NCBI GenBank assembly: GCA_003568945.1
Contig: BDIP01000012.1
Span: 1 to 48,186 of the forward strand
Source of the DNA: Kipferlia bialata
Lineage: Eukaryota
Direction of reading: 5' to 3'
Length of the DNA stretch: 48,186 nucleotides
The position numbers and the translations under genes were made by a program. A model generated the notes under the pieces. That model was not told where the DNA came from. It saw only the letters and a list, made by a program, of their open reading frames with translations, and searched no databases. Below, piece by piece: positions 10,801 through 39,183 of the stretch. Numbering within the stretch: the stretch's first letter is position 1; each line of letters begins with the position of its first letter.

Positions 10801-13800
10801 CCTCATACTCTGGAACTGGGGGTCAGACAAGTATGCATACTATACAGTACACTAACACCACATTAATACAAACACATATCTATCACTATTACTTCTGACA
10901 CGCATATACATCACATATAAATTAATACTGTATTTGTATATATGTATACCTGAGGCTCTGTGCCTGCAATAGAATTCTATATAGAACAGTCATACTAACA
11001 ATATATTGAATACTGCAATATATGAATATACAAATATATCCACTGTATACCTGTGGCTCTGTGCCTGCATGCTGCCAGAAGGGCTCAGTAGAGAATCCCA
11101 TACATAATAATATAGGTACTGTAACTATATATATATATATTCATATATACTATTTAATATATACTAGTCTATATACCTGGGGTTCTGTGCCTGCATGCTG
11201 CCAGAAGGGCTCGGTGGCTGTGAAGAGAAGGGCCACATTAGAGCCCCTGGGAATGAGAGGAATGCAATATCCATTCTACCATAGTAGTCTACAATGCTAC
11301 AATATATATTGTAGAACTTGAACACAAGCCTAGGCCTAATACACTAGAATGCGTTTACACAATGATACCTGAACAACAGCCTCCCAAGCTCCTCCGGGTC
11401 CTGTATCGATGCAGGCATCAGGACAGAGACACTCTCCCTGAGGTCAGTATCGTAATATCCTAACCCTATTTATGTATATATATCTGACACTGATGATATA
11501 TACAAATATCATTATACATACAAATAGTCAGTCATAGATCATTATACATATATATAGTCAGTGAAGTTGGTCTCAGCACAGAGACACTCTCCCTACGGTC
11601 AGAGAAGGGGATAGTAATATATATATGATGCAATAGTTGTACCAGTAAAGTTTACTTACCTAAGGTCATCTACGTAGTTGCATATGGCCCCATCTGTGCT
11701 GTCTAAGCATGCCTCATGCTTCTCAATCAGGGGCAGGAGCTTGTTCAGCACTGCTGCCTCGCTCCTTGACCTATTGTTACTATTTATTACTATATATATA
11801 TATAATTATTAGTAATTCTTTATAATACATTATATTATGCAATGAATTACAATTCATTGTCATATATTACTATATATTACTATAATACCTCTGGATGAAG
11901 AGACGGGACGTGCTGACACTATAGGATATGAACTGGTGCAGCTCAATGCCACGGTCGGGGTAGAGTCTGATATGAGTATAGAGAGACACACCTACTAACG
12001 TACTATATATACACATAATTGGATATAGAGCAGCTCAATGCCACGGTCGGGGTAGAGCCTGATATGAGTATAGAGTGAATCTCTACATCTGTACAATATA
12101 TATACGAGTATGAATGTACATATACGAGTATATATACACATGAACTGGTGCAGCTCAATGCCACGGTCAGGGTAGAGCCTAGGATGAGTACATATAGAAT
12201 CATATATACATATGTAATAGTATTATACTAATATATATATATGAGTATATATCATAAAAACTGGTGCAGCTCAATGCCACGGTCGGGGTAGAGCCTACTG
12301 TGAGTATAGAGAGAATCTCTACATCTGTACAATGTATATACGAGTATGTATATACATGAACATATGAACTGGTGCAGCTCAATGCCACGGTCAGGATAGA
12401 GTCTAGGATAAGCGTTTATTTGACAGACAGTAACAACATATTGTGCAATGTACCAGTATTGAATTATTCACTGACCTCATGATTGCCTGAAACTGTGCAG
12501 TGCACATATACCATTATCCAAGTACACTCATATTCATGTACTACAAGACATATATATATATAGTATATAGTATATAAATATCTATATATCTGAATATAGT
12601 ACTGACCTCATGATTGCCTGGAACTGTGCCGTGCATACCATGAACGTACACTTGTCATCCATAACTATGTATATACAGTATATATAGTATATATGGTGTA
12701 TATATATCCATCTGAAAGTATACTCTCCAAGTACCTCATGATCGCCTGGAACTGAGCAGTGCATATCTTGATGAATGTGTTGAACACCTCCTTGGGCTCG
12801 TTGGTGTTGTACCGGTTGGTCAGGTACCGCAGGGCACTGGTATCAGTATCAGTATATATATATACATATATATACTGAGACTATTCAAGTATCAGTATCA
12901 GTATCTATCATCTATGCTGATATACTAGTCCGGTATTAGTATCACTATCAGTATCAGTACCAGTAAGGTATCAGTATCAGTATCTATATGTACATGTATA
13001 TATACATATACACTGATACTAGTCAGATACCCACCTTGGTGTGGATGTCATTATTAGTATCAGTATAGATAGTATATAATAGTATATATATTGTACCTAG
13101 GTGTTGCAGTCATGAGGTCAGACACACCAGAGGGGTATGACATATTGACACTAGTCAGGTGTCAGTATCTATATATATACATAAATATATGTATATATAC
13201 TGATACTATTCAGGTACCTAGGTGTTGCAGTCATCAGGTCAGACACACCAGAGGGATAACTCATATTGACCCCTATGCACAGACGGGGTGGGGGTGGACT
13301 GCATGTGGTCACAATTACTGGGGTGAGGCACTCTCTAAACTACGCGATCGTAATAATTACGCGATATGCATATACCTGCGAGGTGCTGCGCCATCTTCAT
13401 AACAAGGGTAGCTGCATCTGGCTGCGGCAGAGAGTACTTCTCTCCCAGGGACAGGTAGATCTGGCCAAGGGCTGCCCTGACAATAAGGGTTTCGGGGGGG
13501 AGAGAGAGAGATAGAGCGTACAAGTGTTCACTGAAATATACATATATAATGAGTCCTTACGGATATTCACAATGTAATATAAACCACTATACTTAGATTA
13601 TACCTTGAGAACACAGGTGGCACTAGGCCCTTCCCGAATGCCACAAGACACTGCCTGAGGAGGGGGGACCGGCTGAGCATGTCACCTGGGGTGGTGAGGG
13701 GTATATATATATATCCTATATATTATATATATCATATATGATATACTAATATCATATATGATATACAAGAGCAAACAGGGCACACATACACACATGTGTG

Positions 13801-16634
13801 TACCTGGAATGTGCAGCAACACTCTGCTGAATAGTGTCCTCTCCGATGAGAACTTGGCGTGGATCTGGGTGTTGACCTCTCCAGCTGGGAAGACCTGGGG
13901 TTAGAAGGGTATATTCATACACTAGTAGCAACATACACAACTATACTACTTGGGCAAGAATACAGATGGAGGTACCACCATGTCTATGTCCTCCCCGTCA
14001 TTCCCCTCACAATAGTATAGGTATACAACAGTATATAATTGTAAATACACATAGGTATACTCACCTTGAATGGGGGTACCACCATGTCTATGTCCTCCCC
14101 GTCCTTCCTGTCTATACAGGATAGTATACACGAACTAGTGTATCAATATATATTTATATATATATATATACATAGATATGCACCTTGAATGGTGGCACCA
14201 CCATGTCGATATCCTCCCCATCCTTCCTGTCAGACAGGGGCAGCACAAGGCCAGAGGGAAGGCCACAGGCCACCAGGACAGCGAATCTACATGTGAGTAT
14301 ACACACAATATAGAAGTATGTATATATATGCGTATATCTAGACAAGGCCAGAGGGAAGGCCACATGCTACAAGCACAGCAAACCTATTAATCAGTACATA
14401 GAGTAGTAACACAGAGTATAGAGTAACTATCGAGAGGAAAGAAGAATATTAATGTGGGTATTTGAGCAGCACACCTCACAAATGCCGCAATCTTCTGGTC
14501 GAGGGTGGGCAGGGCAAGCGCGGCCCAGATGGCCTGGGGGTGAGGTATACTTCCCTCTCAATCTCTCCGGCTCTCAATCGATACATATATATGCACATGC
14601 GCCTTCAACCGTCAATACATACCTCCTGCATGGGTGACTCGTGTGCCTGTGACACCCCTAGGCCATGGAGGAGGAGGTTGAGGTCAAGGACAAGCCTGAG
14701 TTGAGTCTTATCGGGATACAATACTGAGATATTATAATATATGAATTAAGATATATATACATATATACATATATATGGAGGAAGAGGTTGAGGTCATTGA
14801 CAAGCCTAAGGTGAGCCTCTTCGGGACATGGTAATACACTATAGTCCATACAATACCTATGCAGGTATCTCTCGTGGTCAGAATGACGCACTGACTCTCT
14901 ATACTCATTCAAATATAAATACATATATAGTATCCCTCACCTAGGCAAGTAACGTTCATGGTCACTGCCAAAGAATGATGCGCTGGCCTCTGACACTGAC
15001 GACTGGGACTCACACTGGGACTGGTCAAGGGACATGGCACTTCGAAGGCTACCGTGTGACCTAGAGATCAGTTAGTAATATACCGCATTATATAATAATA
15101 TATTGAGCCACCCATATACAGTTCATATGGTCCGTCTCCTTATATTTGTACATGTTACACAATTGTGTGAGTAGTACCTGCGGCAATCGAGACTGCCTGT
15201 CTCCCACGCATCCTGTCTCTCTCTCTCTATATATATATGTGTGTGTGTGTGTGTGAGCAGTTACCTGTGGCTATCGAGACTGCCTGTCTCCCATGCGTCC
15301 TGTCTAGACCTAGACGAGGACATCCCCTTGGACTCCCTGCTACTGTCAACAGAGGAGAGGAGCACCTGCTGGCCCATGGCCTTCTGCCTAATTCTACGCG
15401 ATTGCTTCGCGTAGCCCGCAGAAGCGATCTGACTCAGGGTCACGTTGTAGGCTAGGACTTGGAAGAGGAGCTTGGCGGCCTTGGAGACCTATGGTCAGTA
15501 TCAGCAGAAGTTTTGATACATGATGTATCTGTGACATACACACACATATATACAAGCCTCTGTCTGATCGTGGTTGATGAATGACATGGTCATGGTGGGG
15601 ACAGTCATAAATATATATATATAAATATATATACTAATGTATCTAATATATTCTAGTACATATATATATATATATATATATACATACCTCTGTCTGGTCG
15701 TGGTTGATGAATGACATGGTCATGGTGGGGACAGTCAGCTGTCGGAGGCCACTCCCAATGCCTGATGATAAGTGATATATACAGGTGATAACGTCACTGT
15801 ACTGATATACTATACTATACCAATACACATATGAATCCATGCCTATATCTTCCACCGTCTGTGCCACTGTGTTGTTGACAGCCATATACACATACACAGT
15901 ATATATATATGCCCACTGTAAACTATTATCCATTAATATATATATATATATATACCAATACTCTACCTATGTCCTCCGCCGTCTGTGCCACTGTGTTGTT
16001 GACAGCCATCCAGCACTCAGTATATACACCCATTATACTATTAGCCATATATTTATATATATATATATATCAATAGTTACCTATATCCTCGACCGTCTGT
16101 GCCACTGTGTTGTTGACAGCCATCCAGCACTCAGTCTGGACAGCAGTGGAGAGGAGAGTAGGCACAATCTAGGGTGAGGATAGAGAATACATATATATAT
16201 ACATAGTATAGAGAAATATATGTAAGTATATCCAACACTCAGTCTGGACAGCGGTGCTCAACAAGGTGGGGACAATCTAGCATCAGGGAATATATGGTAT
16301 ATGCATGTATATATCATGGTATATGTATTACAATGTATGTATATCCAGCACTCAGTCTGGACAGCGGTGGATAGCAGGGTGGGGACAATCTAGGATCAGG
16401 GAATATATATATGGAGAGAGTATAGTATATGTATAGTATACATATAGAGAGAGAGGGAGAGTATGTGAATATCCAGCACTCAGTCTGCGATGCAGTACTC
16501 AATAGAGTGGGGACAATCTAGGATCAGTATATGGAGTATATACACTTCATAATAGATACATGCAATATAACATATACTCGCATACACCCACCTCTGGGTG
16601 TTCCACTTCCAGGTATATATCAATATACACACAC

Positions 16635-16670
<36 letters not shown>

Positions 16671-17018
16671 CCCCACATCAAGGTGGTCCAGCACCCCCCA
16701 GTAGTTTATCTTGTAGCCATAATTGACATATATATTGAGTAGTACAATACCTCTGGATGTTCCACATCTAAGTGGTCCAGCACATCCTTGAGAGGATACT
16801 GACTGTGCAAGAGGGGGGCAAAACAGTCACTGACGAAGTAATAAGACTGAGGTAAGAGATAGAGAGAAAATGAACGACTATATATAGTATAATGTATAAC
16901 GTATATACTGTACAGTATGTATGACTGTGCAAGAGGGGGGCAAAGCAGTCTGACACGAAATAGTATGACTGGGGTGAGGGTATATATGCATTGTATATAT
17001 AGTATATGTTTATGGCAA

Positions 17019-17051
<33 letters not shown>

Positions 17052-18891
17052 TAAATATATGACTGTGCAACAGAGGCGCAAAGCAGTCACTGACGAAGTA
17101 GTATGACTGGGGTAAGACGCAGACACTATATACATTATGAGAGTATATACTATATATAAATATCCCCCTTATTACCTTAGGCGCTGGTGCCCCAGGTCCA
17201 CTGTGCAGTGCGGTTAGGATGTCAGACCAGATACGCCTCTCATCGGGGAGCACAGTGATCCTGATGGCTTAGGACGCAATGTATATTGAATGTATCCCAT
17301 ATATATCCGATATACAGTTCATATTCTCTCATCTGATCCTGATGGCTTAGTATTCTGTCAATACATATTGCACATAAGGTATACTATATATAATCTATAC
17401 TGTCAACTCTACCTCAGTATCTCCTCCCTGCCACTTATCATATTACTATCTCAAATTTACTGACTGACGCTTGGTATCCAATACATATATACAATTTTGG
17501 TATCAATAATGCAGACTCCCTACCTCAGTATCTCCTCCCTGCCACTGACCAGGTGCCCGAGTCCTGCCTGGGGTCAGTTTAGACCTATGTATATACATAT
17601 ATGAATGTACATACATAAACACACGCATATTAATCAATGTATACATATAACTGACCAGATGCCCTAGTGCTGCCCGATGTCAGTGTCAGTGTCAGTGATA
17701 TGATATATATATGTCTATATATATAGATAGAGAGAGAGAGAGATAGAGAGACATGCCTTGAACATTGGTGCCAGACACTTGAGGGCCAGTACCAGTATCA
17801 GATGTATGTATGTATATATATATATATAGATACATATATATATATATATAGATACATATATATATATATACATATATATATGTATATATCTGATATATCT
17901 ACATATGTTTACATGCCTTGAACATGGGTGCCAGACACTTAAGTGCCTCCTTCTTCTCATCGGAGGAGAAGAGCTTCCCTGATATCCTCATTCCTGACAT
18001 TAAAATATGTACACACACACACACACATATATGTATATACATATATATATATACATATAACTGTTCTCATCGGAGGAGAAGAGCCGCCCTGAGATGCGCA
18101 TACCTGACGTTACAATAGGTTTAGATATATAGTACTATACTGTGGTAGGATATACGTGGAGAAGATACCACCACACCTGACACAAACAGGTTTGTGGCTG
18201 TGATGTAGTACATTCTGGGTATATATATGTATATACTAATATGCGTGTGTGTGTATACAAATAATCCATACTGAGGTACCTGACACAAACAGGTTTGTGG
18301 CTGTGATGTAGTACATTCTGGGGTCCTTCTTGGTAGCCAGTAGGCCCAGTCTCCGAACACTGTCTAAGATACGCAGGGGTGACATATCCAGGAAGTCACA
18401 CATAGCCAGCAGTACATTGAGCAATGCGCCTCTATAGGCAGGTGGGCTCTTGGGGTCCATGGGCATGGTGGCCAGGAGACTCTCCACTAGGCCAATGTCT
18501 ATAAGCTGGTCGGCGTTGAGAGTGACAGCGAAGGAGGCTATGCTGCGTACCAGGGGTGTCTTTGTGGATAGGTCTAGGTGTGTCTCTGCTAGGAGAGTGA
18601 TGCCCTCAAGTCTAGCGGGGGAGAAGGCACTGGCAAGTCCATCATTCTGATGTGTAAGTGAAAGCATATAAAATTACTTAGGAATATTTAGTAGTGATAT
18701 TACTTGGGAAGATGAGGAGAAGACACTGGGTTGGAACAATACCTGGTATATATATATAGAGAGAGAGCGAGAGAGAGAGAGTACCTGCTCAGTAGGCAGG
18801 CTCTTGGACCTAATGTCCCCCATTGACCAAATATCACTGCCAGTGTTGAGGTTGACAGCTGAGGCTGTACGAGATGCAAGGGTTCTGACTG

Positions 18892-18926
<35 letters not shown>

Positions 18927-21900
18927 AATGCTCAGGTTGACAGCTGAGGCTGTACGAGATGCAAGGGTCCTGAAAGTGAACTAGTAAACAAATACAAGCA
19001 TGAATATACATGCTAGTAAAATTGTACCTTATCACAGGGTGAGACAAGAGCTCCTCCACCGAGTGTACTTCATCCTGCAGACATATATATACATAGTGAC
19101 ACACATATATATGGAAGTACCTTATCACAGGATGCGAAAGCAGTTCCTCCACCGAGTGTACTTCATCCTGCAGACATGCCACCAGGCCATTGTATATATA
19201 TATATACATATATATATACACATATATATGATAGTTAGATACCTAATGACAGGATGAGACAGCAACTCTTCGACAGAGTGTACTTCATCCTGCAGACATG
19301 CCACCAGGCCATTGGCGAAGAGGGGCACGATGGACCCATCTGCTGCCCTGGTGACATGGTTGGACAGGCCATCAAGCCTAGGGTTAGTATATGAGTATAC
19401 CATATACATATATATACAGAGAGACCATCAAGCCTGAATATCAGTAGAATACTGTATGGTAACGTATATAGTGATATGTGTATTGTATGGATATCCATCT
19501 GCTGCCCTGGTGACATGGTTGGACAGGCCATCTAATCTATATATCAGTATACTGTATGGTATTATAGACCATCTAACCTGTATATCAGTGGATGGCAGTA
19601 TACTATATATGTATATATACATATGTAGTAATTAATATACATACCTTGAGTATAATAGTATTATTAATAATGAAAATAGCCTGGAATGAGATTGCATATA
19701 TTTATACTATTCATAACCTGAGTATATGAATATGTATATATGTATACATACCTCCCCCCACAGACACACCTATCACAGTCTGGTTCCAATATAGCAGTAC
19801 AACCATATACAATTCATATATAGAGAGTGTATCTGTATTTGTATATATATATGTATATATATGCATACCAAGAAAGATATACCTGGAATGAGATTGCATA
19901 TATGTATACAATATATACAATTCATAACCTGAGTATATGAATATGTACATGTTTATGTATATAATACCTTCCACCGACAGATACATCTGTCACTGTCTGG
20001 ATGTATGATGGCAAGTGAAGCATTGTGGGAGATACATTAATACATATACTGTGTGTACAATTACCTTCCACCGACAGATACATCTGTCACTGTCTGGATG
20101 TATGAGTATAGTATCAGTATTACACACAGAGAGATATACCTTCCCCCGACAGATACATCTGTCACTGTCTGTATGTATGATGGCAGCAGGTTGGTGGCTG
20201 CGGCACAGGCCCAGCTCTTGCCAACACTCCTGGGGGTGAAATGAGGGTGTAGGGTGAGAGGGGGGGGGGAGAGAGTGGGCATGAGGGCATAGGGGGAGAC
20301 GGATAAGATGAAACTATTGTTGATCTTCAGTAGAGAGGGAGGGAGAGAGAGAGAGCGCCGTACCCAGTGGAGTTGAAACTATTGTTGATCTTCAGTAGAG
20401 AGGGAGGGAGAGAGAGAGAGAGTCATACCTAGTTGAGTTTATGATACATGGCACTCCGAATGTCATGCATGCTGCCATGATATGGGCAAAGGCACGGTTG
20501 GTGGTGGTGATGACAGGGGCGATGCTCCATCTACGGGTCAGAGGCGGGAGAGAGAGGTGGGGGGAGAACGAGAGAGAGAGAGAGAGTGTAGATATATTAG
20601 TATATATATATATATATATACACCTTGGGTGTGTCATGAAGAAGTCGTCAGTCTCCATGGGGTCTCTAAGAGTGTATGTCTCCAGTTCACAGGTGGATGC
20701 GTTGTATCTCAGAGGCTCGTATGCACATGGGTCCAGGCCCTCGGGGAAGCACCGCTCCAGGGTCTGCTCCTGGGGTTAGGGATACTACTAATAGTACAAC
20801 TACGCTTAGGAATACTATATATATACATCCCGCAGATAGTATATAGTATACAATATACTACAGAACTGTATTTAAGGAAACACCGCTCCAGGGTCTGCTC
20901 CTGGGGTTGAAGATACATATACAACACTACACATATAGATAAATATAAATGTATATACCTATATAGTGTGTAGAATATACAATACCGGTCGAGGATCTGC
21001 TGCTGGGGATAGTAATTACTAGTACAATAGCTACTATATATAGTATATACCGAACCCACCTTCAGCATAGCAAACCCAGGGTGCACCGCCCACAGAGACC
21101 TCAGAGGAATATATACTATGCAGTATTTACGATACATGTACAATATATAGTGTATACTGAACCCACCTTCAGCATAGCAAAGCCTGGGTGCACGGCCCTC
21201 AGGGACCTCAGAGCATGCTCCTGGGAGGTTAGGGGTAGAGGGTTAATAGCACGTACTCATGCCTTCATATATACATATATACCATGATACATACCTGTGT
21301 GGTGATTCCCAGCATGTGCTCATACTCGCCGAGAGTCAATAACTATATATACATATATATACATTTACATACACAATCATATCTTCTGTAACATATACTC
21401 GTATTATATATAAATACTTACACAAACATATCTTCTATAACCTGTACTATGTATTCACCTGTGTAGTAATACCCAGCATGTGCTCATACTCCCCACCAAA
21501 GTCAATATATAGATGCCCAGCATGTGCTCATACTCGCCCCCAAATGCTGCCTGTACAGCAGTGAGCAGAGTGTATGAGGTGTACACAGTGGCAAACCCGA
21601 CCATAAACAGTGCGATTGTGTGTCCAAGGGGTGAGTTATCTCCATATGATGTGAAGAAGTCGGTGGAAGGGACAATGCTTAGGACTGGACCGACGTTGGG
21701 AAGACCAAAGAGTGTAGGCTCCACGTGTGGTTGGGATGCATGGATTACGCCCTCCTTGGCACGGGAGATGTCAATGTCAACCTTGTGTTATAGTATAGTA
21801 TATATAGTACAGTACTATAGTATGACATATACAGAATACATGATGACGCCCTCCTTGGCACGGGAGATGTCAATGTCAACCTGGGGTGTAAGGTCATATA

Positions 21901-23128
21901 ATACGGGTTTATACTATGTAGATATGTATGTCTTTACATATATGTATGTGTGTGTGAATATGGACTATTGTATACCTTTGTGGGTGTCAGTGTCATGATG
22001 CCCTGCTCATATATCTATCAATCTATATCGATATATACATGTGGATATATATGGATAGATGTATATGAAATATATATGAATGAAGATACCTTGGTGGGTG
22101 TCAGTGTCATGATACCCTGCTCAGACAGGAGCCACCACATAGCTGCCTGGGGTAAGCGTGGACATCGTGTAGAAAGGCAGACATTCCGTTGAAATACACA
22201 TATTTTACCTGTACGAAGGATCCCTCGCAGGAGCTCAGATTCACATCGAGAACCTCCAAGAAACGGCCAATCACACCGAAGAAGTACTTGACGGAGTCCT
22301 GAGGTATTAGATCATTACACAAACAACTACCAATACTCACAAAGGTAAATAAAAGAAGATACTGAGATGCATCTATATACATGCATTGATACCTGGCTGT
22401 TGAGGTCTGGCTGTTCCCCACTATAAATATATATATATATTTATAACAAATACACTGTTCTAATAGTAACAATACCTGGCTGTTGAGGTCTGGTTCCACC
22501 CCAGTGTGCAGGGCCAGTGACTGTCTGAATGCACCTGGTGTCATATATAGCTTGACAGTATGGATAAACTAGTTACTATACAAAGATTAATACATACCTG
22601 GTGTATACACCATGCCATAGTTAACCACCATGGTATGCAGCTTGAAGTAGGTGTGCGAGGGGAGACCCGTGCTGATGTAGACAGTACGCATAGGTGGGGC
22701 AGCCTTGCTCAGCATAGCTAGTCTCAGGTGATTCTCCTCCCCATAACCCCCTAATGCCTGACCCTTGGGGTCGAAGGACATGTCGAGCAGCATCCACTCA
22801 CGCTCCTCCCCACTTCCCTTGGCCCTATGCTTGAGAGAGCGCTGTGCCGCTATGGGGTCACGGTGGAAGGAGGTGGATGCGCCGCATAGCTTGGCTGCCT
22901 CCTCTACAATAGCCTTCGCAGTATGGAGACAGGGTGTGTACACCCACATAGACTCACCGGGGGCGTCGAGGAGAGCCGATAGCCACTTGGTGGCGTATAC
23001 GCCCTCACCTGTCAGTATGCCCTGTCCCTCACCAAAGTCAGGGGGTGGCTCATCCCTCTCATTGTCAATGGAGGAGCCAAAGGCGGCGCTGACAGCGCCT
23101 ACTGTTAGTACAACATATACAAACATGC

Positions 23129-23159
<31 letters not shown>

Positions 23160-23344
23160 TGGGGCTCATCCCTCTCATTGTCGATGGAGGAGCCAAAGGC
23201 GGCAGAGACTGCGCCTACTGTTAGTATATCATATGCATAATATAATATATAGATATATATAGAGAGAGAGAGATGGGGCTCATCTCTCTCATTGTCAATG
23301 GAGGAGCCGAAGGCGGCAGAGACTGCGCCTGGGGTTAGCCATAC

Positions 23345-23382
<38 letters not shown>

Positions 23383-23425
23383 GAGCCAAAGGCGGCGCTG
23401 ACAGCACCTAGTGTTAGTACAACAT

Positions 23426-23458
<33 letters not shown>

Positions 23459-26019
23459 AAGAGAGAGATGGGGGGAGTCTACCAGTATACAATGTATATA
23501 TATATACGTAGTACCTAGGACACCCTCCCTCTCGTATATACGTATATATACATACCTAGTACTCCCTCTCTCTCGTATGGGTTGAAGGACATGGCCATGT
23601 ACTTGTACACAGCAGTCTCGGGGGAGTCTCCCATGTCGATATCATCGTGTGACTCAGAGTCCTCGTCTGCTACGCGATCACCATCATCGCCCTTGTATCT
23701 AATAGCCATGGCAATGGCAACTGGGGGTGAGAGAGGAAGAGAGAGAGAGAGAGAGAACTCTGGTATCTGATGGCCATGGCAATGGCAACTGGGGGTGAGA
23801 GAAAGAGGGAGAGAGAGAGAGAGAGAGAGCTCTTGTATCTGATGGCCATGGCTATGGCAACTGGAGGTAAGAGAGAAGGGGATATAGAGAGAGAGGGAGA
23901 AGGAGAGTCAGACAGAGAGAGGGAACTATGAGACTCACCATCCGACGGGTCTAAGAATATGGATGGGTCTGCCTCTGCATATGTGGTTCTGAGGGCAAGG
24001 CAGGGCTTTCCAGTGACCTTGGGGATTAGTATCCTACTATATACATATGTATATTAATGTACTAGAAAAACTCTATATATACGTTCACATAGGTACCTTG
24101 GGGATGAACCTCAGCTTGTCAGGTGGCGGACGGACGTCAATGTATCTGGAGTGAGTACCATTATACATACATGAACTGTAGCATACATAATCTTGTGTTC
24201 CTTCCAGTCACATACTAGTAGATAGAATGCAATGTATACATAAGAGTTACTAGCATAGAACAAGTATAGTACAGTACAGTGTATCGATATACAAATATAC
24301 CTGATAGGTGTGTTTCTAGGCAAGTGGGGTGGCACAGCAAAGCTACCAGATGGCAGCACGGGTAGGAACAGGACCAGTCCACCTGAGGGTTAGTGCATAT
24401 GTAGTATATATATACATATACATATATAGGACCAGTCCACCTATGGTGTGCTCTGAGGCATGGGGGGTGGCAGAGCCCAGGGGGTTCCTGACAATGCAGA
24501 GATCGGAGTCAGCCACCTAGTGTGAGCCAGATAGAGAGAGAGAGAGAGAGAGGACATGGGGCGTGGCAGAGCCAAGGGGGTTCCCGACTATACAGAGACC
24601 GGAATCAGCAACCTGAGGGTTAGTGGTATGATCTATGTATACACAAATATATAAAAATATATAGGGAGAGAGAGAGAGAGATGGGGCTTGTCAGAGACAG
24701 AGGGTGACGATGCTGAGGTCAGAGTCTATGACCTCTGTTTGTGAATGAATGGTAAAGGTACGTACCTTAGAGTGTGGTGTATTGGGCCCACTTGCGTATG
24801 GCAGCTCTCCCCCTGCCTCCATCGTGTATGCTATGTCCATGATGACACTCAGATGGGCAGGGGAGGCATTCTCAGCACCAAGCAGATAGACAAGGTGTCC
24901 TAGGGTCATTGGAAGGAAGAATGGGGGATAATATATATATTCATATTTAGTATATATACAAATAGTTATGCTGAGGGGAGGCATTCTCAGCACCTAGGAG
25001 GTAGACAAGATGGCCTGGTATAATTGTATACAAGAGGCAGAAAACACGACACTCATATACTATATACATATGCTATATACATATACGTAATCAGACATTC
25101 TCGGCACCAAGGAGGTAGACTAGGTGGCCTGGGGTTAATCGGAAGTAGAACATAAGACTAAGTTGCCAATACACACTATTCATACCCTCTAACAGCATGT
25201 TTGATATGGCACATGCCATGGGCATCGGAGTATATACACATATACTGTGAATATAGAGATATATCCATACCTACAGTGATACCCTTAGCAACCAGTGCCC
25301 CCAGCTGTGCACTCGACCCATCGGTGTCAAGGAGGGGGGTCACCTGGTCTAGGTTCATAGAGGCAGCTGGGGGTGTTAGAGAGAGAGAGAGAGAGAGAGA
25401 GAGCTAGGTTCATAGAGGCAGCTAAAGTTAGTATACATTTTAGGAAGAACCAAAAGAGAATTGTATAGGTGTATCTAGCAAGGGTGTGACCTGGTCAAGG
25501 TTCATCTGGGCAGCTGAGGGGTTAGACAATGAGGTCTTAAGATAGTAATTACACCATGATATAGAGAGTACTATAAAGTATATCTATCTGCATCTAGGAG
25601 AGGAGTCACCTGGTCAAGGTTCAGAAAAGCGGCTGAAGGGGAGATAATGTACTGTAATACCTACACATACACACAATGTATGGTGAATATATACACCTTC
25701 CCGGTAGTTGAGTAGCTCTCTCTTCCAGTCAACATCTCTCTCTCTCCCTCTCTCCATATATATATGTGTATGTATATACATATATACCTTCACCGTAGTT
25801 AAACAGCTCCCGTGGGTTAACCCCTTCCATCCAGTCATGTACAGTGATATATATATATATATACATATATGTATACATATAAATACATAATTTTGTTATA
25901 TTAACACCAACCTTCACCGTAATTGAGTAGCTCTCCTAGGTTGACCCCTCCCATCCAGTCATGCACCACGTGTCTGTGATGTACACCTAGAGAGGAGAAG
26001 CAGAGAGGTGCCTAGGGTG

Positions 26020-26051
<32 letters not shown>

Positions 26052-29000
26052 AGAGTAGGTGTCTGTGATGCTCACCCAGGGAGGAGAAGCAGAGAGGGGC
26101 CTAATGTTAGAGGATAGAGAGAGAGAGAGAGAGAATATGTGTCTGTGGTGCACACCCAGGGAAGTGAGGCATATACGTATGATTAGGCTGGTATATGTAA
26201 CATACACATACCTTGTCCTTGAACATGTATCTGGACACACAGGGCATGTTGAGCACTGGCACATGCATCATGGACCCCTCTTCTAGGCCTGATGTCAGTA
26301 TCATACATATATAACAAGGCATATATATAGTATGTAAAACAAAAATATAGTGAATATAATACAAATATAGTGAATAGTACAAATAAATACATACTGATAC
26401 TGATACCTGCCAGTACTCTGTCACACCACTCAGGTACAACCACTCAGTATATATATATATAAATATACTACACTCTAACTATGTAATAGCTGATACTGTA
26501 TGTATCATATATATATATATAGATAGATACTATATAATGATACCTGCCAGCACTCTATCGCACCACTCTGGTACAACCACAGTGCTGAGGTACTGATACT
26601 GATACTGATACTATATACTATCAATATCATATATATATATACTATATAATTATACCTGATAGCACCCTGTCACACCACTCTGGCACAGCCACAGTGCTGA
26701 GGTACTTGGGACCAACACGGACACCCTCAGCTATGTCTGTTGGCAGTGCAGTCTGTGCCTTGACCTCTCTCACTGCCTGCTCTAGTGCTGATAGGCCCTC
26801 GCTGGATACAGTGGCCTTGCGGAGGGTGTCGTGGACCCACACGCTCAGACCTGGTATTAGTGTGTACAGAAAGGAGTAACATATATGTATACATATACGT
26901 GACTAGGTACTGAGCATGATAGGTATGCCCTGTCCAGAACTTGTCCATGTCCCCTCCAATTCATATATACATACAGATACATATGATTATATGTATATAT
27001 ATGTAAATACATTCATACCTATGTATTGGGCGTGGTATGTATGTCCAGTCCAGAACTTGTCCATGTCCCCACCCTCCAGGTGGGCTATGGCACTCTCGCA
27101 GTCACGTCTCACAGCCTCTCTCATGGGTAGACGCACATCCCTGGTGTTAGTATATATGAACCTATATGTATGCATATATATAGGTAACTACATGGACCCA
27201 CCTTGGCATGTACCGACAGATGGCAGTGGCACCCTAGTATAGCATATATACTCATAATACTATAGTGTACATATGTATACACATAACTATACCTTGGCAT
27301 GTACCCCCTGATAGCGGGTAGTGGCACCCTAGTCTTATAGCATAGTATCATAATGTGTATATGTATATATATATATATACATGCAATATATATGTATATA
27401 TGCAATATACCTTGGCATGTACCCCCTGATAGATGGAAGGGGCACCCTAGTATAGTATACATACAGTATATATCGTTATATATATATATGTGTGTGTATA
27501 TATGCAATATACCTTGGTATGTACCCCCTGATGGATGGCAGGGGCACCCTGGTCTTGAGTCTGAGCACATCTGCCATCCCAGTCTCTCTGGTCAGGGAGG
27601 TGATGGCTGTGATCTCCCACGTGTCCTCATCCTCTCTCTCTCCCTCTCCCTCTGCGCCATCACCATTATCCTTGGTCCCCTTAGAGCCCTTGGCGGGCTC
27701 AGTACTGCTAGGCTTCTTAGAGCTCTTCGCTGCTTTTGGCACCTTGGCCACTAGGAACCCATTCACGCTGAACAGAGGCAGGGGGATGATACCCACGAAC
27801 CTGTACATGAGAGATATTAGACTACAAGACTAAGTATATATACAAGATTATGCAGAACTATATAGAGCATGAAAATATATAGTTATACTTATACTTATAG
27901 AGAGAGACAGAATCAGACACACCTCTCTCCCTCTTCACTCATTGACTCAATGGTGGCAGTATGAGAGATAGTAAGAGGCATAACCAATTCCCATGTACTG
28001 ATACACATCCAGACACAATGACATACCTCTCCCCTTCCTCGCTCATTGACTCAATGGTGGCAGGGATGGGCTGGATCATAGGGGCCTGGGAGTGAGGGTG
28101 AGAGTAATACTGTTGTAAACAATAAATATTATGTATAATAATTGTATAAGGATATATGTATAAGGAATGGGCTGAATCATAGGGGCCTGTGAGTGAGAGT
28201 GAGAGTAGTACTGTTGTGAATAATAATTATGTATAGTATATGTATAAAGTAGTACAAGGAATCGGCTGGATCATAGGGGCCTGGGAGTGAGAGTGAGATG
28301 AGAGAGAGGAATGATCATGAGCCAAATACCAAGATAAGAAGTGCATTGGTTATGTTCAATGATATATTGAAGAAGTAATGGACATAGATCTGTAGTCAAT
28401 GGCAAATACCTGCAGGAAGCTGGGGTTGTTTGGCAGTGTCATCAGTCCCCTACAATATATATATATATAATCAGGTATATATAAATATATGTATGTGTGT
28501 ATACATAGCAATACCGGTAGGAAGCTAGTGACCATATATACATATGTGCATAATATACCTGAAGGAAGCTGGGGTTGTTAGGCAGTGTCATCAGTCCTCT
28601 ATACCCAGAGTCAGTCTTGTCAGACGCATGGAGGGACTCGTAGATGGGGCGCTGCTGGAGCTTCTGATGCATTAGAAGAAACTAGACTTGAGTGATGTTA
28701 AATATGTACACAATATGGATACTGAGGGACTCGTAGATGGGGCGCTGCTGCAGCTTCTAAGGCGTGAGAACATAGAGAAATCTTAATGTATGCATACAGA
28801 AACATGCATATATATTACACAAATAGCATGGATACTGAGGGACTCGTATATGGGGCGCTGCTGCAGCTTCTAAGGCGTGAGAAGAATGAAAAGAACGAGA
28901 AATGGAGGACAATCAAATAGTTTCTAATACGTGAGAAGAAATGAACTTCCGGGTATACTGCACTGACATATATGGATACTATGAAAAGAAGGAATCGACC

Positions 29001-32000
29001 ATTTCTTCCATTACAAGACTACAATTGAAACCAGTATAGGCTAGATAATGGTAATAATACGTACCAGGAGAGTGGGCACAATCCCACTGAGCAGGTTGTG
29101 CATGTGTATTCAAAGATATATATATATATATATATACATAGGATATGTGATATATAATAACTCTCTGCGTACCAGTAGGGTAGGCACAATGCCACTGAGC
29201 AGATTGTGGAGGTTGTCTGTGAAGTCTGAGTCGATCAGGACATCGAGGAGTCTGTTCTTGCACTTCCTCCTGACACTCTTCCTGATGCTGTACCACTAAG
29301 GTGAGTTTAGTTGTAATCAATATATATATATATATACAAAAACGACACTGTACTATAATCTGTACTGTATTACCAGTATAGTACCTTATCAACTCCACCG
29401 AGGTAGAATGCCCTGTGTTCTTCAGAGTGTGCCATCAGCAGCATAAATGTATATATCTATATAAACACAAATATATACATATATATACATATATAGTGTA
29501 TATATATATATACATATATAGTACCTTATCCACCCCCCCAAAGTAGAACGCCCTGTGCTCCTCAGAGTGTGCCATCAACATGACACCCAGGGCCAGGTAC
29601 TGCTGGACCATCCTGCAAGTGAGACATGTATATATATATATATATATGTATATGTATATATGTATATATATGTATATATAATACATCAACATGACACCCA
29701 GGGCCAGGTACTGCTGGACCATCCTGATAATGAGTCTACACGATAACTTGTCACGTATGGTGATCATGTTATACTATATCAAAATAGATGAGTATATGTG
29801 TACACCGGGGGTCAGGTACTGCTGGACCATTCTGACAGTTAGTTGCTAGAATAATCACATAGTGAGACATGATGACTCATATGATACTCATCCATATCTC
29901 ATATATACCTCAGGAGTGACCCAGAGTGCATGGCCCAGAGCATTGTCTACGATACTTCATATAGTATACAGTACAAACAGTCTTATTCCTATAAAGACAT
30001 ATATATATGCCAACCTCAGGAGTGACCCAGAGTGCATGGCCCAGAGCATGGTCTTCTCAACCAGTCTAGCCCTAGGGGTGAGAGGAAGAGAGAGAGAGAT
30101 ACCGCAGACACGAGATATAGTAATCAAGATGATCTACAGATGGGTAATACAAACAATACCTGGCAGTGATGGGTGCGGCATACTTGGCACCCACATCCCT
30201 CTGGACATACAGGATCATGCTCCTGAGGGGTCAGATATCATATCTATGTATATATATACTATATGTGGAAATAATGAATACATATAGGGACGACAAACAT
30301 GTAAATACTGATACAGGAAGGATCATGCTCCTAGGGGGTCAGAATCTCTCAAAGTAATAATATATATTTATATATGGGTATCTTAAGGTAACAGAGATAC
30401 AAATTGTTCAGAATAACACATGGACAAGAGACAGAGAGAGAAGATATTATACCTGATAGAGACAGAGACAGAGAAGAAATCCTACCTGAGGGTCTCGAAG
30501 AAGTTGGGTGGGATTGGGAATCCGCAGGTGGTAAACACATCCTCTTGGCGTACGATCCTGGGGAGTCAAAAACAAAGAGAGAGAGAGCATATACGAACAA
30601 TAGTGAAATACATGGATATACATATACATACCTCTCCCCCCAAACCTCACTGGTCCATGAGTTCATGGCCCTCTCACAGGCATCAAGCCTAGACTCAACC
30701 TGGAGTGAGTATTCTACGCGATTTTACGGGGTACAACTCACATACTGGCATATATAGGGTATATACATACCTGTGCCTCCTCGTCTCCGGTGTCCACTGA
30801 GAGTATAATAACAACCAGATCTACGTATGATAAATACTACAATCCTAGTCTCTCTCCCAATATATACATACCTGTGCCTCCTCGTCTGCCGTGTCCTGTC
30901 TATATTTCTATATATACCTAGTATAACGACAAATACTACTACATAACAGCTACGCGATGCTAGTCCTTATATATACATACCTGGGCCTCCTCGTCTGCCG
31001 TGTCCACTGCCAGTTGGATGGCAGGTAGGTTGTTGAGACCGCCTGCTTCAACTAGAGGGTTAGATGATTACCATACCACACAAGTCGAGCAACTATGTCT
31101 ACCGTACTCTGAGCCAACCTAGGTTGTCGGGTGATGATATACATATCCAATTTACTATGTTTACTATTGAATATATAAACTCTGAATAACTACGTATGTT
31201 ACCTCACCTAGGTTGTCTGGTGATACCAATACTATTTTCTATATATACTATACTATTGAATTCGTATATACAATATGACATATGGGCGTACCTAGGTTGT
31301 TTGGTGATATCTCTGTCAGTCTCAGCACAGGAAGACCAGTCTGGGACTCAAGCACATCGAGGTGCCTTATTGTAAGTGGCAAATTTATAATAGTATGTGT
31401 ATGTATGTGTATGTATAATGTTTGATATATATATATGCAGACCAGTCTGGGACTCAAGCACATCGAGGTGTCTTAATGTAAGTGGATATATATATATATG
31501 TGTGTGTGTATACTAATGAATGATACAATATATGTATATACATATATATGCAGACCAGTCTGGGACTCAAGCACATCGAGGTGCCTGGGGGAAAGTGGAT
31601 ATATATTATCGTATACATATTATAGTATACATATTTGTGACACAATACATATATGCAGACCAGTCTGGGACTCAAGAACATTGAGGTGCCTGGGGGTAAA
31701 GAAGAAATACACATAAGGAGTAAATAAGAGACAAGAGGTGCATTGCACCCATGATGCAGGTAGTGTACACATGGTGTATATATGGTGAATCAGCACTGTA
31801 TTGTACCTGTGGTGCAGTGATGGGGAGCACACCAAGGAGAGTAGCCCTATGGTAGGTCGCAGCTGCATCTCCTTCTGCCTCAGGGCCACAGGGAAGGACA
31901 GGTTGGGCACGTCCCTAAGAGGTTAGAGAGAGAGAGAGAGAGAGAGAGAGAGCCAGAGAGAGATGAGGGGCAGGTTGGGCACATCCCTGGAAGGTTATTT

Positions 32001-33617
32001 CACTGACAATTTTCAATATGGTCACCATATATATATACAATATAGAACAAGTTCGGGGCTTCCCTGGTGGTTACGACTACTGTCATACATTCATGTTGTA
32101 CACATCTCTCTATATACCTTAGAGCCGTGCACATATCCGCCTTCCCAGCCTCCAGTCCCTCCAGTGCATCCTTGGCCGCCTTGATGGGGGTGTTGGCAGC
32201 ACAAGACAGGACAAGACTGAAATGAGATGAAGCACGAGACACTATTAGTATGCGTCCTGACTATATCAGTGGGTATACCTTCTCATCTCGTCTAGCGTCC
32301 TAGTCAGTAGATGTATATTTATGTGTAATGGTGAGTGTACCTTCTCATCTCGTCTAGCGTCCTAGTCAGTAGATGTATATTTATGTGTAATGGTGAGTGT
32401 ACCTTCTCATCTCGTCTAGCGTCCTAGTCAGTAGATGTATATTTATGTGTAATGGTGAGTGTACCTTCTCATCTCGTCTAGCGTCCTAGTCAGTAGATGT
32501 ATATTTATGTGTAATGGTGAGTGTACCTTCTCATCTCGTCTAGCGTCCTAGTCAGTAGATGTATATTTATGTGTAATGGTGAGTGTACCTTCTCATCTCG
32601 TCTAGCGTCCTAGTCAGTAGATGTATATTTATGTGTAATGGTGAGTGTACCTTCTCATCTCGTCTAGCGTCCTAGTCAGTAGATGTATATTTATGTGTAA
32701 TGGTGAGTGTACCTTCTCATCTCGTCTAGCGTCCTAGTCAGTAGATGTATATTTATGTGTAATGGTGAGTGTACCTTCTCATCTCGTCTAGCGTCCTAGT
32801 CAGTAGATGTATATTTATGTGTAATGGTGAGTGTACCTTCTCATCTCGTCTAGCGTCCTAGTCAGTAGATGTATATTTATGTGTAATGGTGAGTGTACCT
32901 TCTCATCTCGTCTAGCGTCCTAGTCAGTAGATGTATATTTATGTGTAATGGTGAGTGTACCTTCTCATCTCGTCAAGAGTGCGTGTGAGTCCAGGTGCAT
33001 TGAATACTAATATATATCTATATACACATTGTATAGCATATATAGAAAGTCATACCTCCTCATCTCATCAAGAGTACGTGTCAGGCCAGGTGCATCCTGG
33101 TCTGCCACGGGTACCGAGGACAGAAGGACTTCAATGTCAGAGGCCACACGGAGGAGTTGCATGCACCTGCTGTTAGTATATATCTCTCTCTCTTTCTCTC
33201 TCTCTACATATATATATATATATATTATATTATATGTGTTTACAGTATTTATATGCATGCACCTGGGGTCAGCATATATATGTTCACAAACACATATGTA
33301 TGTCACATATAGAGATATACATATCGGATGAAGATAGTGCGTGTGTATATACCTGTGCACCATGTGTGGGTTGCCTGGGACAGATGCCAGGGAGGGGGAC
33401 ACGCTCAGACCCTGCATGCCTAGAAAGTGAGATTATACATGAATACATATATGTATGAAACCTCATATATACACAATATAGTATAACATACCTAGCAGTC
33501 CAGCCCACTCCTCTATCAGAGCCACCCCCCTCCTGCCAGCCTTGAGCAGTCTGAGTAGCTCGGCAGAGACAGCCTCAACTGAGACATCGCTGATAGTTAG
33601 AATAGAGAGAGAGAGAG

Positions 33618-33659
<42 letters not shown>

Positions 33660-35804
33660 TGGACAGCTTCCGCAGAAACACTGGAAATAGGAAGAGCACA
33701 TCTCCATGTGGATAGTATAATATACCACAATATATATATACCTCTTCTTCTGTGGTCTAGTGTACCCAACAAACCGGGGCAGGGGCTCAGCAGCAGAGAT
33801 ACTCTCTGTCTCTCTCTCTCCCTCTGTCTCTGTCTCTCCCTCTGCCTTGGTCTCTCTCTCTCCCTCTGTCTCACTGCCCACAGTACCTATAGTACCCATA
33901 GTTCCTATAGTGCCAGCTATAGTGGAGCTACTGGCCTTAGCCACAGCAGCAGATAGTACACTCTCGCATGTCTCTGCACCAGAGGTGGGTTGACACAGGT
34001 CTCTAGGCACAACGGGGAGACCAGTAGAAGCCTGAGAGGGTGAGATATGTATGATACAAACCATACACAGTGCAACGGCGTCAATTACTGCGGCATCACC
34101 AATACCGTAGGTAGAGAAGGAGAGAGAGAGAGAGAGAGAGAGAGACGGTACCTCAAATGCCACAAGGAGTCCGGCATCGCTGAGCAACTTCTCGACATGG
34201 TCATCGGTGGAGAGGCCTAGAGGTCAAACAGGAAGATATACACATTCACACATAGTTACCATCATACATATCCATACATAATTATGACATAATGCATATA
34301 CATTTGCATACCTGCCATGCTACCGTTAGTGTGCACCAGTGAGTCCGATGGGTAGGACACCTCGTTGAACAGATAGTCAAAGGTGCCTGGGGGTCAGTGT
34401 TTCTTGGTGAATACTAGTGACTACATATAGTTGTAAATACATCAGTAGTGTCTCAACAAATACTATATTAATTATATAATAATACGCATCATAGAGAGCA
34501 CTATGATAGAGTCCACCGTACCAGGTGGCTCATCGGCCAGTCTACTGGCGGCATCGCAAGTCTCTCTGTCCTCTCTTTCCTCGCTGTCCTGGTCTGCCAC
34601 TAAGGCTCCATGTGTATCTACCGACAGTCTCGTCATGCAGCGCAGTCTCTCCTGAATACCGCTGAAGTTAGTATACTTAGTGTATAGAGTTCGTATACTT
34701 AGCATATATAGATGGTATTAAACAAATATGTTATTCAGACAGTCTCGTCATGCAGCGCAGTCTCTCTTGAATACCACTATGGTTAATAGTATATGTATAG
34801 AGACGTGATAAAACATATATGTTATACAGACAGTCTCGTCATGCAGCGAAGTCTCTCCTGAATACCGCTGGTGTGAATGGTTGGTGTAAATACAATTTGA
34901 ACTTCTAAATATACTAAGATATACCTAGCCAGCGTGGATGTCCATGTGACCAGGCCATTCAGTTGTGTGCACATGCACCTATGGGCAGCCAGTCTCTCAG
35001 TCTGGAGCTGCTGGGGGTTAGATACAAATTATACAATATGAATGTACATAAATACATAAATTACTCCTGAACTACTATATATGGGCAGCAAGTCTCTCGG
35101 TCTGCAGTTGCTGAGGGGTTAGATGATAATTACCATTACAATTATTGTTACAAAATTCAGCATACAGTCTTGACCTATACCACAACTAATACAGGCAACA
35201 CATTCCAAGAGCCTGCAGTACCTCTGCGGCACTGACAAAAACCCACCATATAGTATGCTACACTAGAAATACTACTATATATACAGTATTTGTATATATA
35301 CAAAATACTACTGTCCCACCTTGAGCACCTCTGCGGCACTTGAGACAAAGCCAGTGACCCTGACCTGGAGGGTGAGAGGATACATATACACTTACATACA
35401 CAGTATAAACACATATTGACAGATATATACTATGTACACATCAATAATATGTATGCTAACACATATATACAATGTATATAAACATACTATATACATACCA
35501 TGTCGAGGTGTGTGTCCGTGGGTATGTAGCACCCAGCAGATACATGAATCTATCAGTAATTTGTATGCTAACACATATACAATGTATATATACATGCATA
35601 CCATATCCAAGTGTGTGTCCGTGGGTATGTAGCACCCAGCAGACAGAAGGGCATCGCAGTATGCAGTGAGAGCAGCGCCGCACTCCTGATATTTAGAGAG
35701 AGAGAGAGAGATATAGAGAGAGAGAGAGAGCATCGCAGTATGCAGTGAGGGCAGCGCCACACTCCTGAAGGTTAGGTATATATGGACATACCCATATACA
35801 TATA

Positions 35805-35839
<35 letters not shown>

Positions 35840-36389
35840 TAGGCAGTCAGGGCGTCTCCACACTCCTAATGAGGTATATAAGAAGATAGGAAGACAGAGG
35901 TGTTGCGGGGAGTATCCTACCTGCCACTGAGGCTCTGCCAAGTGTGCCTGTCCCAACAGTATATACACACTATATATATAGTATCTATCTATATATATAT
36001 ATTAATACGTATATAGTATATATCCGACCTGCCACTGAGGCTCTGCCCCCTGTGCCTGTCCCAGCAGTGTCTGGATCTGGACATACTGCTCGGGGGAGTA
36101 GATGCCAGCCATAAGGACCTAGAGGGTGAGATATTACTCCAATATACCTGGTATATTTGCTATGTATGTGTACTGTACGCTATACTATAATCAATATATA
36201 TATGTGTGTACATACTGCTCAGGGGAGTAGATGCCAGCCATAAGAACCTGTGGTAAGACGCTATACTATATTCAGTAACACACAAACCATAAGGCATTAT
36301 GTATCGCTATACACAATGATACCTTGAACCTCTTCACTCTCTCTAGCACACATGCCACTGCAGCAGACAGTATCTGTACATGGACGCCA

Positions 36390-36422
<33 letters not shown>

Positions 36423-36613
36423 GTCAGAGACTATACATAATATATACTCTATACCTCCTTGAACTTATAAATATATAGACACTGTACCTGCTTGAACCTC
36501 CTGACTCTGTTAAGTACACATGTCACTGCAGCAGACAGTATCTGTACATGGGTGTCCCTGGACACTGACAGGGCAGCATCGTACACTGTCTGCAGGGACT
36601 CCTAAGGGGTTAG

Positions 36614-36646
<33 letters not shown>

Positions 36647-36863
36647 GGAGAGGGACACTGACAGGGCAGCATCGTACACTGTCTGTAGACACTCCTAGAG
36701 GGTTAGATATATACATATAGAGATATAGAGAGAGCCAGAGAGAGCCAGAGAGAGACAGAGGGCGGCCTCGTACACGGTCTATATACCTTCGCATTGGTCA
36801 AGTGGGTGACCCCCCCTCCATAGTATGCAGTGTGGGGCAGAGACATACACATACACACACACG

Positions 36864-36898
<35 letters not shown>

Positions 36899-39068
36899 CA
36901 AGAAATATACACCATTACATTCGCATTGGTCAAGTGGGTGACCCCCCCCTCCATAGTATGCAGTGTGGGGCAGAGATAGGATGTATACATGTATATTTAC
37001 ATTGAGTGCATACAACGTAATATATATACCTTTGCATTGGTCAAGTGGGTGACCCCACCCCCATAGTACGCAGTGTGTGGCAGAGATAGGATGAACGCCT
37101 GGTACTCCCTCAGCACCTCTGACTCCTCTACAAAGAGATCGGGGCGCAGACAGAGAGAGACAGAGGGTGGGGGGAGGTACACAGCGTTTGAAACGCTCGA
37201 AGCGTCTGAAGCGTCTGAAGAAACCTCTTTGAATGTGTTGAGTATGCTAGTGTATGAGGTGTGTCCTGTAAGCCTCTCTATGGCCTCAGGTGGTAGTGTG
37301 ACTCTCTGGTTGAGTCTGGTGTCCATGACGTGTATCAGGGTGGAGTGGACTCGGAACATGTGGGGGATGAGGAAGCTGGCATTGCCTGACGGTAAGTGAT
37401 ACACATACTCACGATATTTACTACTGATATACACAGTGTTGAGTCTTGATATATGGGGGATCAGGAAAATGGCATTGCCTGCGGTGAGGAAATGTATGAG
37501 TATGCACCAGGTTCAATATCCTACTGTTATCCTTATTTGTATACATATGTACACACTTACCGAGCATCTGTGCAAAGTGTGGCAGCGTGATGTATATCTA
37601 TATACATCCGATACTTCAATGTAGTGTTAATATATCTATCATATATATATATTCATACCCAGCATCTGTGCATAGTGTGGCAGACAGACTATGGTCAGCC
37701 TCTCCTCATTGGGGGAGTGCACTATGGGGCTGTGGGTGCATGTCCACTGGCTGAAGCACTTCATAAGGGCTCTGGGTATCAGAAGGTATTAGAAGGTATC
37801 GTATATATATGTAATTATAGAGAGAGAGAGAGATAGGGTGGGTGCATGTCCACTGGCTGAAGCACTTCATAAGGGCCCTGAGTATAAGTATAGATATACA
37901 TATGAATAGAGAGAGAGAGAGAGAGAGAGAGTAGGTGTGACTGTGGGTGCATGTCCACTGGCTGAAGCACTTCATGAGGGCCCTGGGTATCAGTATTGAC
38001 GTAGTATCATATACATATATTTTCATAGGTATATTGAGACACATGCCATACCTCAGTCCATGTCTCTTCTGCTTAGTGACATCCTCAGCAGAGTACTCGC
38101 CATCCACCCTCCACTCTCTCTCCCCCTCTCTCTCCCCCTCAGGTACCCTACTGGCTACCAGTGGTAGTCCATACACAGGGAACCTGGGTGTTACACTTAT
38201 GAGAGAGTATATCTATAAATTCATATTTTAATATATATATATTTAATATATATATATATACATATCTAAATATACCCCACTGTCCACAAGGGATATACCC
38301 TACACTGGGAGCCTGGTGTGACACTATAACCATATGTATATATACACGTATAGCAGGGCCAGATCGTATACAGGGAACCTCGTGTTACACGTATAAGAGA
38401 ACACACATAAATATCAGTAGTCACTACAAGAAGTACTGTGTACCTAGCGTATGGCCCTATGGACACCTCTCCACTATAAATGTATATCTATATATATATG
38501 TATATGTGTTTGTATATTCGTATACATATTCATATATACCTAGCGTATGACAATACATATAGTTATGTGTACCTAGCGTACGGCCCTATTGACACTATGG
38601 GTGGTAGGCCAGGTGGGCCAGGGTTAACAACCTTCATGGAGTGGTTGCCCTGCAGTAAGACATCCATATATATATACATTACTAGATAGACACTCCATAC
38701 AGTGTATATATAGTAAGCATTGGGTATACACAAGATAGTGTGGGTATTGATGACCTTCAACCTTCATGGAGTGGTTGCCCTGCAGTTAGTATATATGCAT
38801 AAATATACACAATTAGTTAGACACTCTATACATTGCGGTGAGAGACATCCACACACTCCCCTCCTCCAGCAATCAACAATATATACAAGTATATATATCT
38901 ATACAAATACGCATATATGGAATATGTATATATATATATATGTATGTATATGATATATACCTGTACGTATGGCCATATGGACTGCACCCCCTTCTCCAGT
39001 GTGGGTAAATGGCAGACGGCTTGGCAACCAGGAGCTGGACGCAGACATCATCCTGAGAGTCAATATAT

Positions 39069-39104
<36 letters not shown>

Positions 39105-39146: not shown

Positions 39147-39183
<37 letters not shown>

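Follow-up and report, generated by a model that had tools for sequence, protein, structure and literature searches.

How did a 58-nt intron come to begin with the same letters as the exon that follows it? The question is raised by a gene on the minus strand of a contig of Kipferlia bialata (BDIP01000012.1, positions 1 to 48,186, assembly GCA_003568945.1); the whole stretch of 48,186 nt that was analysed is referred to here as the window, and the features on which the argument turns are collected in Table 1.

The 58-nt intron and its host gene

The claims that the intron starts with nt 1-13 of the following exon, and that a 15-bp direct repeat is formed in this way, were both confirmed by sequence comparison on the minus strand, where the two identical copies (24370-24384 and 24428-24442) read AGGTGGACTGGTCCT and are separated by 43 nt. 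When 58 nt are cut from the repeat, GT...AG ends result in only one of 16 registers, 24440-24383. With GT...AG ends, a branch point near the 3' end, and presence in DNA and absence from RNA, the intron has the features of a U2-type spliceosomal intron, ACTAAC being the probable branch point in view of the YTNAY consensus. Its donor is the 10th weakest of 127 and its acceptor the 6th strongest of 127. Removal of the intron leaves the frame open over six exons, and its retention leads to a frameshift and a stop.

Table 1. Coordinates in the window of the host gene, the 58-nt intron and the elements related to it
Feature	Position	Strand	Description
Host gene	143..47834	minus	About 128 modelled exons, 126 introns, 13.0 kb coding; both ends may lie outside the model
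Probable template: intron tail and unused acceptor of the preceding intron	24611..24665	minus	9-nt head CCTATATAT and 13-nt end plus GT common with the 58-nt intron
Dead partial echo of exon A	24553..24612	minus	Behind the unused acceptor; 60 nt with 9 differences, of which 6 are synonymous
Exon A (upstream)	24441..24516	minus	76 nt
Intron	24383..24440	minus	58 nt, GT-AG, phase 1; splits a Gly codon at model residue 2163.33
Repeat copy 1	24428..24442	minus	Last AG of the upstream exon plus intron nt 1-13; gives the weak donor GTGGAC
Intron 3' part	24383..24430	minus	CCT, TA-rich DNA, branch point and acceptor; probable copy of 24665-24613
Branch-point motif ACTAAC	24389..24394	minus	Predicted branch A at 24390; just before the acceptor AG
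Repeat copy 2	24370..24384	minus	Acceptor AG plus nt 1-13 of the downstream exon
Exon B (downstream)	24301..24382	minus	82 nt

In order to examine the locus in independent material, contigs from two public runs, X1 (DNA) and X2 (RNA-like), were aligned to 21000-27250; that X2 represents RNA is a presumption, but its contig skips introns. X1 record 4 covers 23867-24519 with no differing letter and no gap, and therefore the repeat was not introduced by the assembly of the window. X2 record 9 (4,433 nt) consists of exons only, and from its piece at 23720 to that at 24764 there are 284 intervening letters. The exons 24516-24441, 24382-24301, 24145-24097 and 24017-23939 total 286 letters, or 284 after subtraction of two shared letters, so that the contig has exactly the intron-free length and the 58-nt intron is spliced. 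Likewise, the depth in the bin containing the intron was 41.1, where 41.1 is expected for a spliced and 62.2 for a retained intron, and all five depth bins computed matched the spliced model. The check in cDNA suggested with the original prediction thus agrees, in both length and depth, with splicing at 24440-24383, a junction inferred from the length arithmetic of X2 record 9 with no junction read sighted; junctions beyond 21000-27250 rest on the gene model and on colinearity with paralogues. Six of the seven homologues aligned here (P0002, P0003, P0004, P0005, P0007 and P0008) cross the junction without an indel, and the seventh, P0006, starts just past it. The 58-nt intron is a real, used intron. 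The assembly of the window is faulty nearby, about 52 codons being absent between 25271 and 24899, and on this ground an assembly artefact or an unused junction might be suspected; however, the unchanged DNA contig, the exactly spliced length of the RNA-like contig and the homologues that cross without an indel refute this explanation for practical purposes, and its probability is negligible.

The host gene was delineated by means of a self-trained exon model with filters against echoes (partial exon copies), in which the donor at 24440 was allowed as a candidate. The model is approximate, a few of its exons being echoes or missing; at 21-27 kb it lies within three letters of the RNA pieces in 10 of 13 bins, and it is colinear with homologues over residues 115-4037. 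Eight named homologues (P0001-P0008), 30-54% identical, are all from Kipferlia bialata. Named paralogues of this species include KIPB_000659, KIPB_000784, KIPB_001238, KIPB_000871 and KIPB_003653. Four of the eight gave a weak match to DHC_N2, one of them above the Pfam cut-off, and the host gene is probably a divergent dynein-heavy-chain-like paralogue. A protein search with the exon 23096-22597 among proteins of 292-2000 aa gave no match, Pfam searches with 13 single-exon queries and P0001 gave none above the curated cut-off, a PDB sequence search with P0001 returned two matches with E of about 0.7, and an atlas search yielded no usable match. As P0001-P0008 show, K. bialata contains an expanded family of divergent dynein-heavy-chain-like proteins of 4,500-5,100 aa, with no match outside Kipferlia among the named records searched. 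Three full-length members of this family fit contigs of 27-33 kb, and consequently contain far less intron DNA than the host gene.

With 9.7 introns per kb of coding sequence, the host gene is only modestly above the average of the K. bialata genome, about 7.2 per kb as computed from the genome table (PMC5874029). The process that generates echoes had been proposed to be linked to an extreme intron density of the gene. Given this small difference, and since the signature is found in one of the 126 introns and repeats of at least 9 bp in three, the link is unproven; one case cannot explain the intron density of the host gene.

Probable sources of the two intron ends

Among the 126 modelled introns, the 58-nt intron is the only one whose start matches the next exon over more than 4 nt (13 nt), and in 15,750 non-self pairings no such match exceeds 6 nt. 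Its boundary repeat of 15 bp compares with a maximum of 10 bp in 15,750 non-self pairs, and boundary repeats of at least 9 bp occur in three of the 126 introns, when 0.12 are expected. The exon copy also differs in position from the other acceptor-type echoes of the gene. The 75 that are at least 18 nt long are all 49 nt or more away from the donor, 72 of them with an AG of their own, and 10 other short echoes (11-17 nt) likewise carry their own AG; the copy in the 58-nt intron lies at distance 0 from the donor and has none.

In the Rogers model of AGGT tandem duplication, as presented in PMC3443670 and PMC3265369, the entire intron is duplicated exon, and its 3' part should therefore copy the end of the upstream exon. 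The 58-nt intron is bounded by AG|GT on either side, and its 5' part is identical to the start of the downstream exon, but its 3' part agrees with the upstream exon end over 2 exact nt (the AG) and in 6 of 15 letters, with an alignment score of -5 when the mean of 93 exon ends is -0.5. Accordingly, the gain by AGGT tandem duplication that was originally put forward stands in one part and falls in another. It was right in taking the exon's own AG|GT as the donor, and a gain is the likelier history of the intron; the mechanism fails, given that the 3' part is unlike the upstream exon and reaches a score of 55 with a neighboring dead acceptor. One might still suppose a plain duplication of an AGGT exon segment in which the 3' part later decayed past recognition, as the AG|GT ends and the 5' part would fit and this mechanism works in cells according to PMC3265369. 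Nevertheless, the asymmetry between a perfect 5' part and an unrecognizable 3' part largely refutes this history, a better source exists, and we regard it as quite improbable. In its working the 58-nt intron is comparable to a gain by break repair in which the insert is templated, and it does not belong to the plain Rogers class.

Two other introns of the gene have boundary repeats of a mirror type. A 79-nt intron (24018-24096, minus strand), which is absent from P0005 and whose splicing is supported by RNA arithmetic, has an 11-bp repeat, and its 3' end copies the upstream exon end, itself branch point-acceptor-like; it fits the 3' side of the Rogers model better than the 58-nt intron does. 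A 63-nt intron (22535-22597, minus strand) has a 9-bp repeat. The three introns with repeats of at least 9 bp are all short and lie within 2 kb, and no neighboring donor source was found for the two of mirror type.

The dead acceptor that resembles the 3' part of the 58-nt intron is located 230 bp upstream, at 24612. In a comparison with 272 other acceptor-like sites it has the longest end match to the intron, 13 nt plus GT, the next best being 8, and its alignment score of 55 is the best (mean 20, s.d. 14 over the 272 sites), tied with that of a distant tail at 10026. The 13-mer at the intron end occurs in only two places in the window, the intron itself and 24612. The 9-nt head, CCT followed by ATATAT, is present in four of the 272 tails, including that of 24612, and the homology to the upstream tail sets in with CCT, the three letters that close the exon copy, exactly where that copy stops. 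Ends of at least 13 nt are common to 7 of about 36,100 distant unrelated pairs, so that the chance is about 0.002 when the 10 sites up to 600 nt from the intron are considered; over the 750 near pairs of the whole window about 0.15 would be expected by chance, and the comparison is a post hoc one. About 10 of 50 aligned columns differ between template and copy, in DNA of low complexity, and the microhomology is short at both joins, comprising the 3 bp of CCT (weak) at one and 4 bp of AGGT at the other, or the 7 bp of TAGGTGG if the functional acceptor of exon A is considered. No RNA contig aligned on 21000-27250 covers 24553-24761. Copying from the upstream tail into the new intron would be the preferred direction, because the reverse leaves the 13-nt exon copy unexplained and makes the CCT boundary a coincidence. 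As 18 of the 36 unused exonic AGGT sites score higher as donors than the one in use, the imported acceptor is plausibly the limiting part. By eye, a second and older echo of exon A can be recognized at 24681-24732 (minus strand); it has the same end point as the echo at 24612, and a CT run follows each.

Competing histories, polarity and exon echoes

Based on these comparisons, we hypothesize, with a probability of roughly 0.6, that the 58-nt intron is a new intron in a once-continuous exon, created by a microhomology-primed templated insertion in which an exonic AG|GT became the donor and the preceding intron provided the branch point and acceptor. A DNA end that had broken or stalled 13 nt beyond the AG|GT would have primed on the upstream intron tail through the common CCT, about 50 nt would have been synthesized through branch point and AG|GT, and the end would then have rejoined the exon at AG|GT, where the microhomology is 4 bp, or 6-7 bp with a template that had the present start of exon A, leaving 15 bp duplicated. 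An equivalent route in two steps would start from an ordinary echo duplication, after which a deletion at microhomology removed the second copy of exon A. In either case the strong imported acceptor may have allowed a weak exonic donor to be used, with the protein unchanged. Ku, DNA-PKcs and Ku-dependent end joining are reported in PMC8516963 to be absent from metamonads, and a-EJ is described there as complete in part of the group but only partial in other members. In PMC7407515 the signature of alt-EJ is given as templated insertions with repeat motifs, and in the rice data of that paper the insertions were often copied from DNA at most 200 bp from the break. A test for microhomology at the other echo ends was weak, the following 10-mer being found in the echo's own upstream tail in 5 of 75 cases, compared with 2.5% of control tails.

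The main rival to a templated gain is an old intron of which only the donor is new. From an acceptor echo in which the old intron was followed by 13 nt of exon B, then by an intron tail and exon B, AG|GT microhomology or conversion by cDNA would have removed the first intron precisely, and the echo would have been left as the donor. Acceptor echoes are indeed common in the gene and 10 others are as short, 25 of the 126 introns have AG|GT at both ends, and the steps required are no more numerous than in the two-step route of gain. However, the match to the dead acceptor of the upstream exon is not predicted by this history, cDNA-templated events are not evident, since the 1.5 kb around each modelled junction contain no free-standing copy of a spliced one, and one paralogue lacks the intron; an old intron therefore appears unlikely. 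An introner-like small mobile element inserted with a 15-bp target duplication would likewise produce a 43-nt insert flanked by direct repeats at AGGT, but no terminal inverted repeats were seen by inspection and the window holds no other copy beyond the 13-nt end at 24612, which makes this origin highly improbable. Intron transposition by reverse splicing, in which a whole intron is copied together with its donor, does not fit, as the donor half is derived from the exon.

The paralogue in question, P0005 (KIPB_016107, Kipferlia bialata, 240 aa), is 54% identical to the host protein, covers residues 2139-2396 and is colinear across the junction of the 58-nt intron. It is encoded on a contig of 739 bp, with 19 nt to spare; the K. 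bialata assembly is described in PMC5874029 as genomic scaffolds of at least 500 bp with AUGUSTUS models, and with so little room on a genomic scaffold P0005 has no intron at this site. In fact, all five introns of the host gene in its span are missing, namely the 58-nt intron and the next four. Consequently, either the host gene gained five introns or the paralogue lost a block, and a block loss through cDNA also fits; the absence is support for a gain, not proof. P0005 begins exactly at the start of exon A, but this carries little weight, being one of 10 termini examined, each with a chance of about 9% of falling within one residue. Metagenome scans revealed no orthologous DNA or second isolate: a scan with the neighboring exon of 166 aa gave 96 pattern matches, none of them confirmed, and one with a 26-nt donor-side pattern gave none. 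As no orthologue was found, the gain is an inference.

The raw material for the 58-nt intron is supplied by the echo process. Echoes amount to 156 segments in 78 of the 127 gaps between modelled exons (143-47834, minus strand), and echo and exon are found on the same DNA contigs (records 7 and 8). Relative to the exons, 21% of third, 4% of first and 2% of second codon positions are changed in the echoes, with similar values when the ends are trimmed, and the resulting pN/pS of 0.10 should be read with the proviso that several echoes share one exon and that detection favors similar copies. Simple decay after duplication is expected to give a pN/pS of about 0.5 or more, and it would therefore seem that the echoes acquired their differences as coding sequence, for instance as alleles that were captured in the course of unequal repair. 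This almost exclusively synonymous divergence may be more surprising than the 58-nt intron itself. It also lends some credit to the intron being a recombinant of diverged alleles, one intronless (exon A and 13 nt of exon B) and the other intron-bearing (tail and exon B), the gain or loss having occurred earlier in another lineage. Such a recombinant would nevertheless leave the origin of the tail, with its match to the upstream acceptor, to be explained, and no second allele was present in the contigs at 92% likeness, a level that a more diverged allele would escape; we consider it improbable.

Several irregularities of the window were also noted. The codons missing at 24900-25270 are present in the RNA contig, as a gap of 153 letters, and in P0003, P0004 and P0007; the deficit is likely an assembly collapse at an echo, and a donor echo of the missing exon probably persists near 25190-25230. 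A second collapse at an echo is likely at 21512, where DNA contig record 2 and the RNA contig both stop matching inside an exon without a donor. At 32279-32919 (minus strand) eleven near-perfect tandem copies of a 62-bp unit contain an exon end, a donor and an acceptor-like site, and their number may be an estimate of the assembly.

Comparison with known routes of intron gain

Very few gained introns have a known source sequence, according to the accounts in PMC3443670, PMC4683709 and PMC3629103. For the 58-nt intron a candidate source lies within 250 bp for each of the two halves, and the probable source pieces are both still visible, which makes it a rare case. The main obstacle to creating an intron in one step would be overcome by importing a branch point and acceptor that already function, and the chimeric signature provides a test that can be counted genome-wide. 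For the intron wealth of K. bialata, the genome paper favors an ancestral origin and leaves independent gain open (PMC5874029); the 58-nt intron bears on this choice as one case without phylogenetic polarity. Extended to the genome, it would mean that Kipferlia makes introns by recycling splice sites, the error-prone repair that captures exon ends from diverged alleles also dropping branch point-acceptor units behind exonic AG|GT, and that a sizeable share of its approximately 125,000 introns is recent rather than ancestral; we offer this generalization as a speculation and hold it to be doubtful. In the literature searched, to which subscription papers did not belong, no description was found of a chimera between an exonic donor and a neighboring acceptor.

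Each of the known routes shares part of this pattern. The AGGT gain of Rogers, exemplified by ATP2A1 in PMC3265369 and reviewed in PMC3443670, is likewise described as precise at an AG|GT proto-splice site, with an exonic donor and an unchanged protein; in contrast, the branch point and acceptor of the 58-nt intron match the 3' end of a neighboring intron, and just 15 bp of exon are duplicated. Intron transposition and partial copies, as treated in PMC3443670 and, for DDB_G0275263 of Dictyostelium, in PMC4683709, also give a new intron that resembles an existing one, of which Dictyostelium copies part. Unlike in that account of DDB_G0275263, where flanking direct repeats are not found, the 58-nt intron has such repeats and copies only the 3' half, from the adjacent intron of the same gene. 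Gain by break repair has in common with the present case an inserted sequence that acts as an intron between short direct repeats; the examples given in the review involve mitochondrial sources and NHEJ, whereas here the probable source is an acceptor at a distance of 230 bp, and Ku is reported to be absent from the group concerned (PMC8516963). Finally, the insertions of alt-EJ and synthesis-dependent MMEJ, together with the patch duplications of rice, resemble the 58-nt intron in their repeat motif, probably in their nearby template and perhaps in the microhomology at the joins, as set out in PMC7407515; the creation of an intron by such an insertion is not among the cases described there, and in this respect the 58-nt intron differs from them.
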